In this document: in pieces, positions 14,937 to 25,054 of the stretch | How positions within the stretch are numbered: the first letter of the stretch is position 1 | Layout of the letters: the number at the start of each line of letters is the position of its first letter | NCBI GenBank assembly: GCA_963851265.1 | Contig: CAWKNZ010000001.1 | Coordinates: forward strand, 160,001 to 224,000 | DNA length: 64,000 nt | Source: an uncultured Gemmatimonadales bacterium | Lineage (GTDB): Bacteria; Gemmatimonadota; Gemmatimonadetes; Gemmatimonadales; Gemmatimonadaceae | Direction of reading: 5' to 3' | The notes under the pieces: model-generated | Database searches by the model: none | What the model saw: the letters and a program-made list of their open reading frames with translations, nothing else | What the model was told of the DNA's origin: nothing | Translations under genes and position numbers: made by a program

Positions 14937-16859
14937 TCACGCGGTGAACCACGACGCCCACCCGGAGCTCCCGTCCCACGACGTCGCGTAGACCAGCCCG
15001 TCCGAGCCGACCGTGAACAGGTCCAGGTGCGCCGTGAGGCGCGAGATCGCCGCGACCGTTCCGCCGGGCTCTCCCACGCCGCCCGCCACCCAGAACCACC
15101 CGGCCCAGCCCGTGGCCGCGTCCCACCACGTGCTGTAGACGCGGTTGTCGGTGCCGATCGTGAACACGTCGAGGTGGTTGGTGAAGCGCGACACCGCCGT
15201 GACCTGCGCGCCCGGCGACGCCACGCCGCCCGAGACCTGGAACCACCCCGCCGCCCACCCGGTGTGTACGTCCCACCAGGTCGACATCGTGGCGCCGTTC
15301 GCGGCCGTCGTGAACAGGTCGAGGTGGTCCACGAAGCGCACGACCGCGTTCACCACCGAGTCGGGGCGGCACACGACGCCGTTGAGCGGGAACCACGCGT
15401 GCCAGCCGCTCGCCGCGTCCCACCAGCAGCTGTAGACGCGCTCGTCCGTGCCCACCGTGAACAGGTCGAGGTGGGTGGGGAAGCGTGCGACGGCGGTCAC
15501 GGTGGCGCCGGGCGCGGCCACGCCGCCCATCACCTGGAACCAGCCGGCCCAGCCCGTGCTCGCGTCCCACCACGTCGACACGGTGGCGCCGTCGGCCGCC
15601 GTCGTGAACAGGTCGAGGTGGTTGATGTTGCGCGAGACGACGTTCACCGTCGACCCGGGGCGGCACGCCATCGTGCCGAGCGGGAACCACGGGTGCCACC
15701 CGCTCGACGCGTCCCACCAGCAGCTGTAGACGCGGTTGTCGGTGCCGACGGTGAACAGGTCGAGGTGGTTGGCGAAGCGCGACACGGAGGTGACCGGCGA
15801 GCCCGCGCCGCCGGGCGACGCGACGCCGCCCTCGACCTGGAACCAGTTGGCCCACCCGAAGCTCGCGTCCCACCAGTCCGACATCGTGCGCCCGTCGTTG
15901 GCGACGGCGAACACGTCGAGGTGCGTGGGCACGCGCGCGACCGCGCTCATCGGCGTGCGCGGTCGTGCGGCGAGCGTCGCGCGCGGCGGCCGGAGCACGC
16001 AGGCGTTGGCGCTGTTCGACCACTCGGTCTGGATCGTGAACCCGCCGAGGTTCGTCACCGACCCGTTGCAGATGTCGCCGATCTCGTTGCCGGTGGCGCT
16101 GTCCCACCACGCGTTGAGCGCGGGGTCGGTGATGGCCTCGCACAGCTCGTGGCTGCTCACCTTGGTGAGCGTGTTGAGGATCGTCCCGAACGAGCACCCG
16201 CCGCACGTCACGAACGGCTCGACGGCGTAGTAGACCGCGCCGGTCGGGGCGTTGAAGTGGCCGTGGTAGCCGCAGTACTGCACGCACGACGACTGGGTGC
16301 CCTGGGTCGAGACGACGCCCGGGGGCAGGTACACGAAGTAGAGCGTGTTGGGCGTGACCGCCGGCACGGTCCCGGCCGCGATCCACCCCGCGAGGGCCGC
16401 CTGAATCTGCCCGTCGCTCACCGTGCCGCTCCCGCCGCCGGGCTCCGACGTGGTGATCGTGCGCGAGCCGATGTGGGTGCCGTGGCCGATCGGCGCGCCG
16501 GGGAGGCTGTACTCGGCGAGCTGGTCGATGAGCGAGCTGGTGAGGATGAAGTTGAAGAAGGCGTCCACCTGACCGCGCAGCGGCGCCTGCGCCGGCTGCG
16601 TCCACGCCGCGCCCCAGTAGACGGTGACGACCTGCACCGCCGACAGCACCGGGCCGCCGTGGTACGTGAGGTGGGGCGGCGGCGCGGCCGGCGCCGGGGC
16701 GCCGGCGGCCGGAGTGCCTAACGTTAGGCCCTTGTCGTCCGCCGGCGGCGTGTGCAGCGGGACGATGTTGCGCGGCCCCACCGGCTGCGCGCCCGCGAGT
16801 TGGGGCGTGTACGAGGCGAGGGGCGCGCCCTCTCGCGTGCTGCCGTGTTCGGGTGTCAT
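14937..16859 (-). CDS. Phi-1/EXORDIUM-like N-terminal domain plus 7-bladed Trp-rich lectin-like beta-propeller
   Basis: LTYHGGPVL, YCGYH, SHELCEAITDP, EIGDIC; seven ~49-aa repeats HLDLF...WWD...GW..WF; GGAGG RBS. Confidence 0.8.
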   Translation of the reverse strand: MTPEHGSTREGAPLASYTPQLAGAQPVGPRNIVPLHTPPADDKGLTLGTPAAGAPAPAAPPPHLTYHGGPVLSAVQVVTVYWGAAWTQPAQAPLRGQVDAFFNFILTSSLIDQLAEYSLPGAPIGHGTHIGSRTITTSEPGGGSGTVSDGQIQAALAGWIAAGTVPAVTPNTLYFVYLPPGVVSTQGTQSSCVQYCGYHGHFNAPTGAVYYAVEPFVTCGGCSFGTILNTLTKVSSHELCEAITDPALNAWWDSATGNEIGDICNGSVTNLGGFTIQTEWSNSANACVLRPPRATLAARPRTPMSAVARVPTHLDVFAVANDGRTMSDWWDASFGWANWFQVEGGVASPGGAGSPVTSVSRFANHLDLFTVGTDNRVYSCWWDASSGWHPWFPLGTMACRPGSTVNVVSRNINHLDLFTTAADGATVSTWWDASTGWAGWFQVMGGVAAPGATVTAVARFPTHLDLFTVGTDERVYSCWWDAASGWHAWFPLNGVVCRPDSVVNAVVRFVDHLDLFTTAANGATMSTWWDVHTGWAAGWFQVSGGVASPGAQVTAVSRFTNHLDVFTIGTDNRVYSTWWDAATGWAGWFWVAGGVGEPGGTVAAISRLTAHLDLFTVGSDGLVYATSWDGSSGWASWFTA

Positions 16860-17083
16860 GAGGCCCTCCGGGGCGCTCGCCCGGACCATTCCGGGCGCGC
16901 CCTCAATCGTTTCACGACGGCAATAAGTCAAGCGCGCCGGGAGGGCGACGCGCGACGTGCGGCTTCCGGGGCGTAGCACCCTCGCTGCCCGCCCGCCGCT
17001 GCGGCGTGGCGCGCGTGTCAGGGCCCGCCGGGCGCCTGGACGGCGCCGCGCCGCCGTCGTGCCGACCACGCCCGGGCGGACGC

Positions 17084-17112
17084 TTGCGCGCAGGCCCGGC
17101 CGTCGCCACATT
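17084..17112 (+). promoter_or_regulatory. Putative promoter of the leader/aromatic operon
   Basis: TTGCGC (17084-17089), 17 nt, CACATT (17107-17112), 9 nt before the leader ATG. Confidence 0.5.
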
Positions 17113-17121
17113 GGCCGGACC

Positions 17122-17223
17122 ATGCGCCGCCCGACCGCCGCCCAGTATTACTTTAGCAGCTATCGCTACTTCGGCTTCCCGCCGGGGACAGCGGTGCTGT
17201 GCGCGCGCTTGAGCAGGCAGTAG
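17122..17223 (+). CDS. Tyr/Phe-rich attenuator leader peptide (33 aa)
   Basis: MRRPTAAQYYFSSYRYFGFPPGTAVLCARLSRQ*; 4 Tyr + 3 Phe in codons 9-19, directly upstream of a terminator and Phe/Tyr biosynthesis genes. Confidence 0.85.
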   Translation: MRRPTAAQYYFSSYRYFGFPPGTAVLCARLSRQ

Positions 17224-17250
17224 CTCCAAAGCGACCTCGCGATACACGCC

Positions 17251-17282
17251 AGCGGCCCCCGAATCTCGGGGGCCGCTTTTTT
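17251..17282 (+). terminator. Attenuator intrinsic terminator
   Basis: AGCGGCCCCCGA-atc-TCGGGGGCCGCT (12-bp stem) with T run 17277-17282, 22 nt before the aroF ATG. Confidence 0.9.
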
Positions 17283-17304
17283 GTTGTCCCCTGCCGCTAC
17301 CACC

Positions 17305-18284
<980 letters not shown>

Positions 18285-18288
<4 letters not shown>

Positions 18289-19235
18289 GCACCGCCGCGA
18301 CCGGGGGCGCGCCGGCGGTCGCGCTCCGCCCGCCTACCGCGGCAGCCGCTCCGCGTGTGGCGTTCCAGGGCGAACACGGTGCGTACAGCGAGGAGGCCGT
18401 CGCGGCGTGGTGGGGCGGCGCGGCGGTCGCCGTGCCGGCGCGCGAGTGCGCCGACGTCGCGCGCCTGGTCGAGTCGGGCGCGGTCGACCACGGAATGCTC
18501 GCCATCGAGAACACGCTCGCCGGTAGCGTGCTCGCCGCCTACGACGCACTCGCGACGGCCGCGGGCGTGACGGTCGTGGGCGAGGTGGTGTTGCCCATCC
18601 ACCACTGCGTGCTCGCCCCGCCGGGGGCCGACCTCGCGTCGCTCTCCACGGTGGAAAGTCACCCGGTGGCTCTCGCGCAGTGCGGGCGCTTTCTCGCCGA
18701 CCACCCGCACGTCGACGCCCGCGCCGCCTACGACACCGCCGGCGCGGCGCGGGCGGTGGCCGCGCGCGGCGACCCCCGCTGCGCGGCAATCGCCGGTCAC
18801 GGGGCGGCCGAGCGGTTCGGCCTCGCGGTGCTCGCGGCCAACGTCGAGGACCGGCCCGACAACCAGACGCGCTTTCTCGTGCTCGCCCCTGCATCTGCCG
18901 GGCGGATCGTGAACGTGGCAGCGGCGCTGCCCGAGGGCGCGCCCGCGCGCACCGCGCTCATCGCCGTCACCGACAACGTGCCGGGCGCACTCCTGCGCCT
19001 CCTCGCCCCGCTCGCGGCGGCCGCGCTCAACGTGAGCAAGATCGAGTCGCGCCCCACCGGCGTGCCGTGGGCCTACCGCTTCTTCCTCGAATTCGAGCAC
19101 GCGGCCGCCGATCCGCGCGTGGACGACGCGCTCGCCGCCGTGCGCGGCGCGTCGCGCGAACTCCGCACGCTCGGCACCTTCGCGCGCGCCCACCCGGCCG
19201 ATGCCTCGCCAACCACCCGGGGGCACGATGGCTGA
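18285..19235 (+). CDS. pheA: Prephenate dehydratase with ACT domain
   Basis: [45 protein letters not shown] overlap. Confidence 0.93.
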
Positions 19236-20199
19236 ACGCGCCGTGGGAATCGTGGGCCTCGGGTTGATCGGGGGCTCGCTGGCCCGGGCGCTCCTCGCGC
19301 GCGGCGTGCGCGTACTGGGGACCGCGCACGACGCCGAGGACCGTCGGCTCGCGGCGCGGTGCGGGGTGGAGGTCACGGGCGGCGTGGCCGAACTCGCGGC
19401 CGCGATGCCCGCCGCCGGTGCGCCGGCCAGCCATCCCACGAGACCACCGGCGCCCAGCGTGGTGGTGCTCGCCGTCCCGCTCCCGGCGCTCGGGGCGGCG
19501 GCGGGCGCGCTGCTCGGTTCGCTCGCGCCCGACGCGGTCGTGCTGCACGCCGCCGGTCTGCAGCGGCCGGCGGCCACCGGGCTCGACGCCGTCGCGAGGG
19601 CGCGCGTGATTGGGACGCACCCACTGGCGGGGTCGCACGAGGCCGGGTTCGCGGCGTCGCGCGCGGATCTGTTCGCGGGGGCGGCGGTGTGGGCGGAGGA
19701 GCGCGCGGGCGACGCGGCGCGCGCCTGCCTCGAATGGCTGTGGGCGTGCGTGGGCGCGCGCGCCGTCGAGTACCGGAGCGCCGAATCGCACGACGCGGCG
19801 ATGGCCTGGGTCAGCCACCTGCCGCAACTCGCGTCGACCGCGCTCGCGGCGGCGCTCGACACCGCCGGCATGCCGGCCACGCTCGGCGGACCCGGCCTGC
19901 GCGACGCGACCCGCCTCGCCGCGAGCCCGTTCCCCCTCTGGCAGGACGTGCTGCGCGCGGCTCCCCCCGAGACCGACGCGGCGCTCGCTCGGCTGGCCGA
20001 CACGATCGCGCAGCTCCGCGCCGCGCTCGCCCGCGGCGACGGCGACGCGCTGGCCGCGCTGTGGGAGCGGGCCGGCAACTGGCGAACCGGGCGCACACCG
20101 GTGCCCCACGACCGGGCCAACGACGACGGTCCGGACCACCCTGATTCGGAGGAGACCGCGATGCACGAGGCGGGAATGGAGGGTGCCGCGCGATGGTGA
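19228..20199 (+). CDS. tyrA: Prephenate/arogenate dehydrogenase
   Basis: GLGLIGGSLA, THPLAGS, HDAAMAWVSHLPQL, GPGLRDATRLA. Confidence 0.9.
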   Translation: MAERAVGIVGLGLIGGSLARALLARGVRVLGTAHDAEDRRLAARCGVEVTGGVAELAAAMPAAGAPASHPTRPPAPSVVVLAVPLPALGAAAGALLGSLAPDAVVLHAAGLQRPAATGLDAVARARVIGTHPLAGSHEAGFAASRADLFAGAAVWAEERAGDAARACLEWLWACVGARAVEYRSAESHDAAMAWVSHLPQLASTALAAALDTAGMPATLGGPGLRDATRLAASPFPLWQDVLRAAPPETDAALARLADTIAQLRAALARGDGDALAALWERAGNWRTGRTPVPHDRANDDGPDHPDSEETAMHEAGMEGAARW

Positions 20200-20591
20200 A
20201 CGCGACGGGTCTGGCGGTACGCGCGATTCGCGGCGCGACCGCCGTCGACGTCGACGAGCCCGAGGCGGTGAAGGCCGCGACGCGCGAACTCCTCGCGTGC
20301 ATCGTCGAACGCAACGGCGTGGGTCCGGACGACCTGATCAGCGCCGTGTTCACGGTCACCGGCGACCTCACGAGCACCTTCCCCGCACACGCCGCGCGCG
20401 AGATGGGGTGGACCGACGTGCCGCTGCTCTGCGCGCTCGAGATCCCGGTGCCCGGCGCGCTCGCGCGCTGCGTGCGCGTCCTGCTCCACGTCATGAGCGA
20501 CCGGCCGCGCGCGGCCGTTCAGCACGTCTACCTCCGCGGCGCGGTCGTGCTCCGCCCCGACCTCACCGCCGTGGCCGCGCATGACGCCTGA
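20193..20591 (+). CDS. aroH: Chorismate mutase, AroH class
   Basis: RAIRGAT, FTVTGDL, FPA, VPLLCALEI, HVYLRGAVVLRPD. Confidence 0.93.
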   Translation: MVNATGLAVRAIRGATAVDVDEPEAVKAATRELLACIVERNGVGPDDLISAVFTVTGDLTSTFPAHAAREMGWTDVPLLCALEIPVPGALARCVRVLLHVMSDRPRAAVQHVYLRGAVVLRPDLTAVAAHDA

Positions 20592-21924
20592 CCTCGCCTG
20601 GGCACCGTCATCGCGCGTGCCACCCGTCGTGCCGCCCGTGGCATCATCCGTCCCGCCGATTCTCGCCGAGGGGCAGGACGCCGGCGCGCGCTGCGCCGAT
20701 CGGGCCCGCCAGCTCGGCGTCGCCGGGGCATCGGGCGCAACCGACGTGCTGGCTGCGGCCCGCGCGCTCGAAGCGGCGGGTCGGCGCATCGTGCACCTCG
20801 AGGTGGGCGAGCCCGACGCCCCGACGCCGCCGCACATCGTCGAGGCCGGGATGCGTGCCCTGCGCGACGGGCACACGCGTTACGGGCCGCCGGCCGGCAT
20901 CCCCGAGCTGCGCGCGGCGGCGGCCGACGCGCTCCGCGCGCGCGGCGCGCCGGCCGACGCCGCGCGCGTGGTGGTCGCGCCGGGCGCGCGCGCCGTGCTG
21001 TTCACGACGCTGCTGGCCGCGGTCCGCCCCGGCGACGAGGTGCTCGTCCCCGACCCGGGCTACGGCACCTACGGCGCGGTGGCCGAGTTCGCCGGCGGGC
21101 GCGCCGTGCGCTACGCGCTCGACGCGGCGCGCGGGTTCGCGATCGACGTCGCCGCGATCGCGGCGCGCGTCACGCCACGCACGCGCGTCCTCGTCGTCAA
21201 CGCGCCCCACAACCCGACGGGCGCGGTGGCCGACGCGGCCGCCTGGGAGGCGGTCGCCGAACTCGCCTGCCGGCACGACCTGCTCGTCGTCTCGGACGAG
21301 ATCTACTCCCGGCACGTCTACACCGACGCGCGGGACCCCATCGCGCCGGACGGCATCGGGAGCGACGCGTCGGGCGCCGTCGGTCACCCGAGCATCGCCG
21401 CCGCGCCGGAGATGGCCGGGCGCACGGTCGTGGTGGACGGCTTTTCCAAGGCGTACGCAATGACGGGGTGGCGGCTCGGCTACGGCCTCCTGCCGGCGGG
21501 GCTCGTCGCGCCGGTCACCGCCCTCCTCACGCAGAGCGCGTCGTGCACGGCGACGTTCGTGCAGCACGCGGGGGTCGCGGCGCTCACGGGGCCGCAGGAC
21601 GCGGTGGCCGCGCAGACGGCGGAGTTTCGGCGGCGGCGCGACTGGTTGGTCGACGCGTTGAACCGGATCGACGGCGTGGCGTGCGCGACGCCCGGCGGCG
21701 CGTTCTACGTGTTTCCCCGCGTCGAGGCCGCACTCGCGGGTACGGGGCAGACGGAGGGTACGCTCGCGCGGCGCCTGCTCGACGCGCACGGCGTGGCGTG
21801 CGTACCGGGGACGGCGTTCGGGCCGGCCGGGACGGGGCATCTGCGCTTCGCGTACACGGCACCGTTCGGCGATCTCGAGATCGCGGTCGAGGCACTGCGG
21901 GCGTCTGTAAGCCAGGGTTCGTAG
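20581..21924 (+). CDS. PLP-dependent class I/II aminotransferase
   Basis: GEPD, NAPHNPTG, SDEIY, GFSKAYAMTGWRLG; overlaps aroH. Confidence 0.92.
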   Translation: MTPDLAWAPSSRVPPVVPPVASSVPPILAEGQDAGARCADRARQLGVAGASGATDVLAAARALEAAGRRIVHLEVGEPDAPTPPHIVEAGMRALRDGHTRYGPPAGIPELRAAAADALRARGAPADAARVVVAPGARAVLFTTLLAAVRPGDEVLVPDPGYGTYGAVAEFAGGRAVRYALDAARGFAIDVAAIAARVTPRTRVLVVNAPHNPTGAVADAAAWEAVAELACRHDLLVVSDEIYSRHVYTDARDPIAPDGIGSDASGAVGHPSIAAAPEMAGRTVVVDGFSKAYAMTGWRLGYGLLPAGLVAPVTALLTQSASCTATFVQHAGVAALTGPQDAVAAQTAEFRRRRDWLVDALNRIDGVACATPGGAFYVFPRVEAALAGTGQTEGTLARRLLDAHGVACVPGTAFGPAGTGHLRFAYTAPFGDLEIAVEALRASVSQGS

Positions 21925-21986
21925 GGCCGGTTGCCTCCACCGCCCCTGGCGGGTATCGTGGCGCACCCCGACCTGCGAGGTGTACC

Positions 21987-23111
21987 CTGCCGTCGTTCGT
22001 CCACCCCCGCCGCCTCGGCGCCACGCTCCTCGTCGGCGCCGCCCTGACCCGCGCGAGCGCGCCGAGCGGATGGCGCGTCGACGCGCGGCCCGCGGCGCCG
22101 ACCGTCTCCCCCGCCCTGCTCGTCCTCTCGAAGACCGACCACGTGCTCAGCGTCGTCGACCCCGCGACGCTCCGGGTCGTCGGGCAGGTGCCGTCGGGCC
22201 CCGATCCCCACGAGGTCATCGCGTCGGCCGACGGCCGCATGGCGTACATCTCCAACTACGGAGGCGGCGCGTACCACACGCTCACCCCCGTCGATCTCTC
22301 GGGGCCGCGCGCGCTTCCGGTGATCGAACTCGGCGCGCTCCGCGGCCCGCACGGCCTCGCGGTCGCGGGTGGCAAGGTCTGGTTCACCGCCGAAGCCGCC
22401 AGGGTCGTCGGCCGGTACGATCCCGCGACGGCGCAGGTCGACTGGGTACTCGGCACCGGACAGGACCGCACGCACATGGTCGACGTGTCGCCCGATGGTA
22501 AGCGGGTGATCACGACCAACGTGAGCGCGGGCACCGTGAGCATCCTCGAAGAGCGCGCCGCCCGAGGCCCGGGCGGTCCACCGCCCGGCGCCCCGCCCGG
22601 CGCCCCGCCCGGTCCACCGCCCGGCGCCCCGCCGGGGCCGCCGCCCGGCGCGCCGCGTACCGACTGGACGTCGACGGTGGTGTCCGTGGGCCGGGGCGCG
22701 GAGGGGTTCGACGTCACGCCCGACGGGAAGGAGGCGTGGGTCGCGAACGCGGGCGACGGCACCATCTCGGTCGTCGACCTCGCGGCGCGGCGGGTCGTGC
22801 AGACGATCGACGCCGGCGTGCGGGGCGCCAACCGGCTGAAGTTCACTCCCGACGGCGCGCTCGCCTTCGTTTCGACGTTAGGCGGCCCCGACGTGACGGT
22901 GCTGCGCGTCGCGACGCGGGCCGTCGTGAAGCGCGTGCCGGTGGGGCACGGGGCGGCCGGGCTGCAGGTCCAGCCCGACGGCGCCCGCGTGTACGTGGCG
23001 TGCACGCCCGACGATTACGTCGCGGTGGTCGACGTGCGGTCGCTCGCGGTGGTCGGGCGGATCGCGGCGGGGCGGGAGCCCGACGGGCTGGCGTGGGCAG
23101 TGCGGCCGTAG
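21987..23111 (+). CDS. Exported YVTN/YncE-type beta-propeller protein
   Basis: Repeats such as GPDPHEV, DVSPDGK, DVTPDGKEAWVAN, FTPDG, VQPDGARVYV; start uncertain (possible CTG). Confidence 0.8.
   Translation: MPSFVHPRRLGATLLVGAALTRASAPSGWRVDARPAAPTVSPALLVLSKTDHVLSVVDPATLRVVGQVPSGPDPHEVIASADGRMAYISNYGGGAYHTLTPVDLSGPRALPVIELGALRGPHGLAVAGGKVWFTAEAARVVGRYDPATAQVDWVLGTGQDRTHMVDVSPDGKRVITTNVSAGTVSILEERAARGPGGPPPGAPPGAPPGPPPGAPPGPPPGAPRTDWTSTVVSVGRGAEGFDVTPDGKEAWVANAGDGTISVVDLAARRVVQTIDAGVRGANRLKFTPDGALAFVSTLGGPDVTVLRVATRAVVKRVPVGHGAAGLQVQPDGARVYVACTPDDYVAVVDVRSLAVVGRIAAGREPDGLAWAVRP
22567..22655 (+). repeat. Pro/Gly tandem repeat (12-bp units) inside the propeller gene
   Basis: [30 protein letters not shown]. 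Confidence 0.8.
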
Positions 23112-23200
23112 CGGCGGTGAGGCCGTAGCGGCGGTGGGCCGGTCACGGGCCGCCGCGCCGAACCGATCCGCGACCCACCGCTCTACCCATCCCGCTCGGA

Positions 23201-25054
<1,854 letters not shown>

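Follow-up and report, generated by a model that had tools for sequence, protein, structure and literature searches.

The aroF operon of an uncultured Gemmatimonadales bacterium is preceded by an element that we take to be, with fair probability, a classical ribosome-mediated transcription attenuator sensing both tyrosine and phenylalanine. Taken more broadly, as a classical four-segment attenuator answering either to the two amino acids or to a single one, this reading is very probable, and a response to both end products is likely. The element lies in the window, the whole stretch of 64,000 nucleotides that was analysed and to which all coordinates refer. The trpL/pheL-type interpretation advanced by an earlier note on this DNA is supported by the conservation of the leader, the covariation of the antiterminator, the geometry of the ribosome on the leader and the fact that control codons follow the identity of the downstream gene.

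Downstream of the leader, five plus-strand genes overlap end to end, and Pfam and NCBIfam confirmed the previously proposed order aroF-pheA-tyrA-aroH-aminotransferase. The first gene, aroF (17305..18288), encodes a type I-beta DAHP synthase (PF00793, TIGR01361; zero PF18152) without the N-terminal ferredoxin-like regulatory domain, and since this feedback domain is missing the attenuator would be the main end-product control of aroF. It is followed by pheA (18285..19235), a prephenate dehydratase with an ACT domain, and by tyrA (19201..20199), a prephenate/arogenate dehydrogenase, which are respectively the sole PDT and the sole PDH_N matches in a genome that is 94% complete. An aroH-type monofunctional chorismate mutase (20193..20591; PF07736 and TIGR01796 above cut-off) and a class I/II PLP aminotransferase (20581..21924; PF00155) close the unit. 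None of the best 25 NCBIfam matches of this aminotransferase was above cut-off, and the gene context suggests an aromatic role for it. With aroF, pheA, tyrA and aroH downstream, the Tyr and Phe control codons fit the products of the operon. The closest named relatives of this aroF are Gemmatimonadales and Gemmatimonadota records with 65-72% identity. The second aroF of the genome (contig C2) carries the PF18152 regulatory domain, and the covariance model of the leader found no match in the 20-kb region around it. The same genome (94% complete) yielded no phhA, no evident Trp-rich leader with a terminator in the vicinity of its trp genes, and upstream of hisG no His-rich ORF. The divergent gene at 14937-16859 on the minus strand encodes a 640-aa protein with Trp-rich repeats and a weak match to a fungal fucose-specific lectin family.

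The leader ORF (17122..17223, plus strand) comprises 33 sense codons followed by TAG, contains no Trp and is conserved in orthologues. Both its coordinates and its codons agree with what had been claimed, namely 4 Tyr and 3 Phe in a stretch of 11 codons (17146..17178), at positions Tyr9, Tyr10, Phe11, Tyr14, Tyr16, Phe17 and Phe19. Such a density is exceptional in the host genome (4.6 Mb, 73% GC): among 12,882 ATG-started short ORF tails genome-wide, only the aroF leader reaches 7 Tyr/Phe in 11 codons, the runners-up being two cases with 5, both of them ends of long frames. In this line, 94 terminator-like sites yielded 35 short-ORF/terminator pairs, among which at least 4 Tyr/Phe in 11 codons were found in the aroF leader only. 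The scarcity of TAT and TTT in this DNA was also borne out, these triplets making up 6.1% of the Tyr codons and 4.8% of the Phe codons in long coding frames. The leader of the window uses TAT for 2 of its 4 Tyr codons and TTT for 1 of its 3 Phe codons, and 70 orthologous leaders use them for 85 of 229 and 75 of 146, respectively. ARAGORN detected one tRNA-Tyr and one tRNA-Phe, so that both codons of each amino acid would report on the same tRNA. The leader peptide itself has no Pfam or NCBIfam match.

A TTGCGC-17-CACATT promoter had been proposed in front of this ORF. Taken alone it is weak, as the putative -35 (17084..17089) and -10 (17107..17112, 9 nt 5' of the leader ATG) hexamers, both on the plus strand, each match the consensus at 3/6 positions, and a promoter scanner placed it below threshold and made no call. 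Its position, on the other hand, is backed by the relatives: among 70 orthologous leaders taken as representatives, hexamer 17084-17089 is the top -35 call in 14, and the best -10 call ends 5-10 nt upstream of the leader ATG in 58. Given this fixed position of the -10 and the rarity of Shine-Dalgarno-like motifs, present in merely 2/70 leaders, the leader mRNA is predicted to be leaderless or nearly so.

Between the leader and aroF there is a predicted intrinsic terminator, supported by sequence and by covariation. The 12-bp GC stem with a T6 run placed by the earlier note 22 nt before aroF was recovered as 12 pairs over 17251-17277, with an A-T at either end. Segment 3, the 5' arm (17251..17262), is defined by the terminator call and the alignment; segment 4, the 3' arm (17266..17277), completes a hairpin of -26.2 kcal/mol, and the T6 tract at 17277..17282, where termination is predicted, leaves those 22 nt up to the aroF ATG at 17305. 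Segment 2 (17181..17200) has two predicted partners: segment 1, and the stretch 17247-17261, with which its part 17183-17196 would give the antiterminator. The proposed identity of 8/10 between 17183-17192 and the terminator 3' arm was reproduced, and the antiterminator pairing itself appears in the predicted fold when the ribosome sits on Tyr16 or Phe17. This mutually exclusive 2:3 pairing is present in the family and weaker than average in the window genome, where segment 2 departs from the family pattern by two mismatches. The trpL/pheL architecture had been drawn with the right anatomy but overlooking the protector (1:2) hairpin (17156-17175/17181-17200), in which segment 1 (17156..17175) provides the 5' arm. 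This hairpin, predicted in the window, would extend across the control codons with 18 bp and -25.3 kcal/mol. A long upper stem across the leader stop codon (17193..17251, also -25.3 kcal/mol) is the predicted nucleus of the antiterminator, and the entire 17183-17261 hairpin, whose base holds the terminator 5' arm, is predicted at -36.9 kcal/mol. Directly past the T tract, a 9-nt complement of 17184-17192 is found at 17283..17291, 13 nt 5' of the aroF ATG, which is partly kept in the same-genus L002. A pattern scan of metagenomes for close copies of the leader start returned 0 stretches, and this downstream pairing was compared with one same-genus relative.

Conservation was examined in 137 aroF loci of the same family, selected on protein score, irrespective of any leader (10, 27 and 100 more among the 150 matches listed, with 151 further matches beyond these). 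Under a strict criterion, an ATG ORF with at least 5 Tyr/Phe/Trp in 12 codons, an aromatic-rich ORF was called in 94 of the 132 orthologous loci with enough upstream DNA, and in 73 of the 132 together with a terminator; 19 control loci, mostly paralogous aroF, gave 1 ORF and 0 with a terminator. Many of the misses correspond to hairpins with interrupted T tracts. Relaxed criteria recovered a leader and a hairpin in 121 of the 137 loci; the Tyr/Phe-rich small ORF looked for upstream of aroF in relatives indeed recurs in most of the loci examined. Among the 16 uncalled loci, 4 have <450 nt upstream, and the covariance model subsequently recognised L193, L153 and L033. After removal of L221 (called in error), L175 (in which a wrong ORF had been taken) and L167 (with an N in its sequence), 118 leaders were kept and thinned at 75% identity to 70 representatives. 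Tyr occurs in all 70 (mean 3.3), Phe in 57 (mean 2.1) and Trp in 40 (mean 0.7), both Tyr and Phe being present in 57; the peptides share this aromatic composition without a common sequence.

The genes behind these leaders vary. Where 4.5 kb or more of downstream sequence was available behind a leader (69 loci), aroF stands alone in 27, as aroF-tyrA in 26, as aroF-pheA-aroH in 13 and as aroF-pheA in 5, with two other orders seen once each, counts that sum to 73 as printed and may miss divergent genes; the five-gene form of the window was found in none of them. The Tyr share is higher in aroF-tyrA than in aroF-pheA leaders (0.79 vs 0.52; p 2e-4, 46 leaders), an association that was discarded as evidence because on a quick aroF tree it amounts to a single change in one clade. 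Some leader-controlled aroF genes (the window, L003, L008, L142, L154, L207 and others) are devoid of the N-terminal regulatory domain, and many keep it. Upstream of aroF in L044, L171 and L205, a pair of aromatic-rich leader ORFs is spaced by about 300 nt, which suggests attenuators in tandem. Aromatic-rich aroF leaders were also seen in Solirubrobacterales/Thermoleophilia and other actinobacterial loci (L071, L084, L093, L102, L103, L106, L116-L119, L125, L130, L131, L135-L137), with a common Trp-Arg-Phe-Ser/Ile tail and zero terminator calls; they form a separate leader class, which is perhaps Rho-dependent or translational. In Anaerolineae, Clostridia and Planctomycetota (L064, L073, L096, L112, L122, L134), aromatic-rich aroF leaders have a terminator call in 5 of 6 cases, and one of the six contains six consecutive Tyr.

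Covariation was judged on a sequence-only MAFFT alignment of the 70 leaders, and the stem covariation expected in relatives was found for both structures. The terminator shows two-sided changes at 9 of its 10 consensus pairs. For the antiterminator, 80.2% of 673 cells are paired, vs 71.5% after shuffling (0/500 shuffles as high), and sliding its columns by 1-3 lowers pairing to 30-48%. Two-sided change occurs at 7 of 10 antiterminator pairs, a number that shuffles also reach (143/500). By mutual information, the antiterminator pair 124:259 ranks within the first 6 among 8,001 column pairs. This strongest covarying antiterminator pair corresponds to a single event on the aroF tree, and the two-sided changes at the six pairs tested amount to 1, 2, 4, 1, 3 and 6 events. 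As the 124:259 swap and the Tyr-rich clade are each one tree change, neither counts as repeated independent evidence. RNAalifold recovered from the leader alignment the terminator alone and no other helix. At the level of individual sequences, binding of a leader to its own terminator arm surpasses the average over the other leaders' arms in 60/70 cases, and lies above 95% of synonymous-codon shuffles in 41/70.

The finding that speaks most for codon identity as the signal, drawn from sequences of related genomes, is that the codons seem to be swapped with the downstream gene. A covariance model built from the 70 aroF leaders gave matches in 66 of 151 genomes across Gemmatimonadota, often several per genome; 56 of the 102 matches listed were examined and counted by eye, with 34 downstream proteins put to Pfam and the rest assigned by near-identical N-termini. 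In front of phhA, the gene for phenylalanine hydroxylase, all 8 leaders (L253, L259-L261, L268, L273-L275), with an antiterminator and a terminator like those of the aroF leaders in Gemmatimonadota, contain 2-6 Tyr and zero Phe. Upstream of pheA, 2-7 Phe were found in 13/13 leaders, 6 of which have no Tyr. Of the 11 matches at hisG, 10 yield a leader carrying 4-8 His, on a scaffold that closely resembles the one before aroF (L277-L279, L281-L283, L299, L304, L307, L309). Among 30 phhA loci unselected for a leader, a Tyr ORF with a terminator was found in 7, with Phe in 0 of the 7, these being all among the 8 found by the model and hence not a separate sample. One further set of matches (L280, L312, L296, L310, L311) includes Leu-rich leaders upstream of an aconitase-family and an HMGL-family gene, which are probably leuC and leuA, and Cys-rich ones in front of a PAPS reductase and of a gene that Pfam leaves unmatched; it also includes a weak match ahead of a probable gltB (class II glutamine amidotransferase). 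Applied to E. coli pheL, the model gives 27.8 bits along the whole of its length, so that the similarity of scaffold may stem from convergence instead of common descent.

In a scan of ribosome positions, a mask was set on each codon of the 70 leaders, with the transcript ended at the terminator loop and the positions anchored by the peptide alone. With the ribosome on the control codons, freeing the terminator arm cost 8.7 kcal/mol on average; the figure was 4.2 once the ribosome had moved at least 4 codons beyond them, 5.2 when it stood on the stop codon and 5.3 when it was left out. From the last aromatic codon to the third codon after it, the cost dropped from 8.5 to 4.0 kcal/mol, and in 66/70 leaders the control-codon value exceeded that at the stop. 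Across leaders, segment 2 begins 2-18 nt (median 12) after the start of the last aromatic codon. In the leader of the window, modelled antitermination is strongest from Tyr10 to Gly18, with 6.1 and 6.5 kcal/mol at Phe11 and Phe17 and 4.8-5.5 at Tyr10, Tyr14 and Tyr16, vs 4.2 at the stop. Tyr9 (1.2) and Phe19 (3.8) stay at or below the stop value, so that among the seven codons proposed as stall sites those from Tyr10 to Phe17 are effective in the model and the two outer ones are weak. The resulting contrast of 2.3 kcal/mol compares with a family median of 5.7 and is lower in just 8/70 leaders; by the same metric, E. coli pheL gives 7.8-13.5 kcal/mol on its Phe codons and 0.9 at the stop.

A stall blocks the terminator in the truncated-transcript model, but at equilibrium it does so in merely 5/70 leaders, the terminator persisting in the other 65 when the full leader is folded with a stalled ribosome. 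Folding the leader of the window with the ribosome footprint masked, as had been suggested, accordingly gave no switch at equilibrium (terminator 0.96-1.0 formed), its stalled antiterminator being predicted about 15 kcal/mol less stable than the upper stem plus terminator. The pheL leader of E. coli does switch in this calculation, with a terminator of 0.0-0.13 when stalled at Phe6-Phe11. Since the terminator wins at equilibrium, read-through is assumed to rely on kinetic trapping.

In the proposed mechanism, transcription would start about 2-4 nt before the leader ATG and translation would begin without a Shine-Dalgarno site. With ample Tyr and Phe, the ribosome would cross segment 2 up to the stop codon while the 1:2 protector re-forms behind it, and 3:4 would then form and RNA polymerase stop at the T tract, near 17282. 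Under low charged tRNA-Tyr or tRNA-Phe, a stall at about Tyr10-Phe17 (codons 10-17) would melt segment 1 and leave segment 2 free. The long stem could then zip down and hold 17247-17261 before the 3' arm is made, a kinetically trapped state that would result in read-through. Without translation, 1:2 and 3:4 would be expected together, leading to termination.

The modelled values leave room for an attenuator of the same build that answers in practice to one amino acid alone, be it Phe (the case of aroR) or Tyr, with the remaining codons placed where a stall leaves the switch shut or serving the hairpin. This reading, which we consider unlikely, draws on the precedent of C. glutamicum aroR, on the ineffective Tyr9 and Phe19 and on the higher scores of the two inner Phe codons relative to the three inner Tyr codons and the stop. 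Nevertheless, the effective zone takes in three of the Tyr and two of the Phe codons, and the Tyr-only phhA leaders and Phe-only pheA leaders suggest that either codon type can signal. Less probable still is that the family represents a real attenuator of which the copy in the window has decayed or been rewired, either switching little or using the 17283-17291 pairing to act on aroF translation. In the window, segment 2 with 17283-17291 reaches -18.5 kcal/mol vs -9.3 for swapped partners, which together with the two segment 2 mismatches and the low contrast would agree with such a change. Pairing of segment 2 past the T tract was nonetheless rejected as a family mechanism (own -9.2 vs swapped -8.8 kcal/mol), the leader with its control codons, the spacing of the promoter and the terminator remain intact, a same-genus relative has the same design, and the long upper stem may compensate.

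It seems very improbable, finally, that the ORF is an independent small peptide gene with its own terminator, or a TnaC-like arrest peptide sensing a free ligand, with aroF served by a separate promoter. A conserved peptide at the stall site, as a TnaC-type arrest peptide would show, was not found across the leaders, where the aromatic composition alone is conserved. Such an arrangement would suit a terminator that is strong and wins at equilibrium, but the gap from terminator to aroF is merely 22 nt, segment 2 covaries with the terminator and the codon content tracks the downstream pathway. The attenuator with dual Tyr/Phe sensing remains the preferred reading.

The element lies outside every Rfam family. 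Model RF01859 (55-bit cut-off) found no match up to E 5 in window 15000-24000, nor in six related loci, the E. coli control scoring 132.3 bits, and an Rfam scan of the same region for T-box or riboswitch leaders returned only a chance snoRNA match inside pheA. According to the description of the E. coli pheL-pheA mechanism in PMC3082878 (Rfam RF01859), the leader of the window shares with pheL the 1:2 / 2:3 / 3:4 layout, Phe control codons and a GC hairpin with a T tract. The pheL leader as described there reads Phe only, has a Shine-Dalgarno site and an ORF that stops before segment 2, whereas the ORF of the window runs through segment 2 and is predicted to be near-leaderless; in our calculation pheL also switches at equilibrium, unlike most Gemmatimonadota leaders. 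The closest precedent is the C. glutamicum aroR-aroF attenuator (Neshat et al. 2014, as mentioned in PMC3890552), a Phe and Tyr codon leader before a DAHP synthase operon in which stalling raises transcription. By the account of PMC11802643, its Phe-Tyr-Phe leader responded to Phe, and Tyr had no effect on transcription. As far as those descriptions go, the leader of the window differs in its codons (4 Tyr, 3 Phe) and in its setting: its aroF is of type I-beta and lacks the feedback domain, the unit contains both terminal branches, and the phylum is another. A predicted Phe-codon uORF with a terminator before aroF, the Acholeplasma uORFC-13-1 motif, is presented in PMC8632094 with an RBS, a U-run for Phe, no reported Tyr cluster and 24 representatives, again in another phylum.

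Leaderless short ORFs acting as amino-acid sensors for an operon have a parallel in the Cys-responsive polycysteine attenuator ORFs described for mycobacteria (10.1101/834739). A caution comes from the Streptomyces ilvB leader, which looks like an attenuator and in which control-codon mutations were reported to have no effect (PMC1262725), a result counted against the attenuator reading here; the Actinobacteria survey in the same source lists zero Phe or Tyr elements. Attenuator calls before tyrA operons, given without leader peptides, are mentioned in a database (PMC1173090), and PMC2659441 points to a leader of aroF in Shewanella. Our search covered openly accessible papers without their supplements, and within that scope no account of attenuation in Gemmatimonadota was found, in agreement with the earlier note; the string 'Gemmat' is absent from the main text of PMC8632094, PMC11109978, PMC4833913 and PMC2965389. 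Likewise, no experimental Tyr-responsive leader-peptide attenuator was found in this literature, and Panina 2001, Lopatovskaya 2010 and Neshat 2014 may list more Tyr/Phe leaders.

The mechanism itself is textbook and a published aroF precedent exists; what is new here is the likely Tyr-rich dual control, the predicted leaderless start and the reusable scaffold. Single leaders reading two or three amino acids are known from thrL (Thr/Ile) and ilvGMEDA, multivalent as proposed for the leader of the window but devoted to other amino acids in other lineages. Tentatively, and with somewhat less than even confidence, we suggest that one ancestral near-leaderless attenuator cassette of Gemmatimonadota was copied and retargeted by control-codon swap, the window holding its dual Tyr/Phe, working Tyr-sensing and kinetically trapped form. 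The targets of such a cassette, a list we hold just as provisionally, would be aroF (Tyr/Phe/Trp), pheA (Phe), phhA (Tyr alone), hisG (His), leuA/leuC (Leu) and cysH (Cys). The natural Tyr-only, Phe-only and mixed versions on one scaffold make the Tyr response testable, and the leader codons aid function assignment, as for phhA as a tyrosine-making enzyme. Altogether, the finding would extend ribosome-mediated attenuation to Gemmatimonadota and add an unannotated regulatory ORF for >100 genomes.
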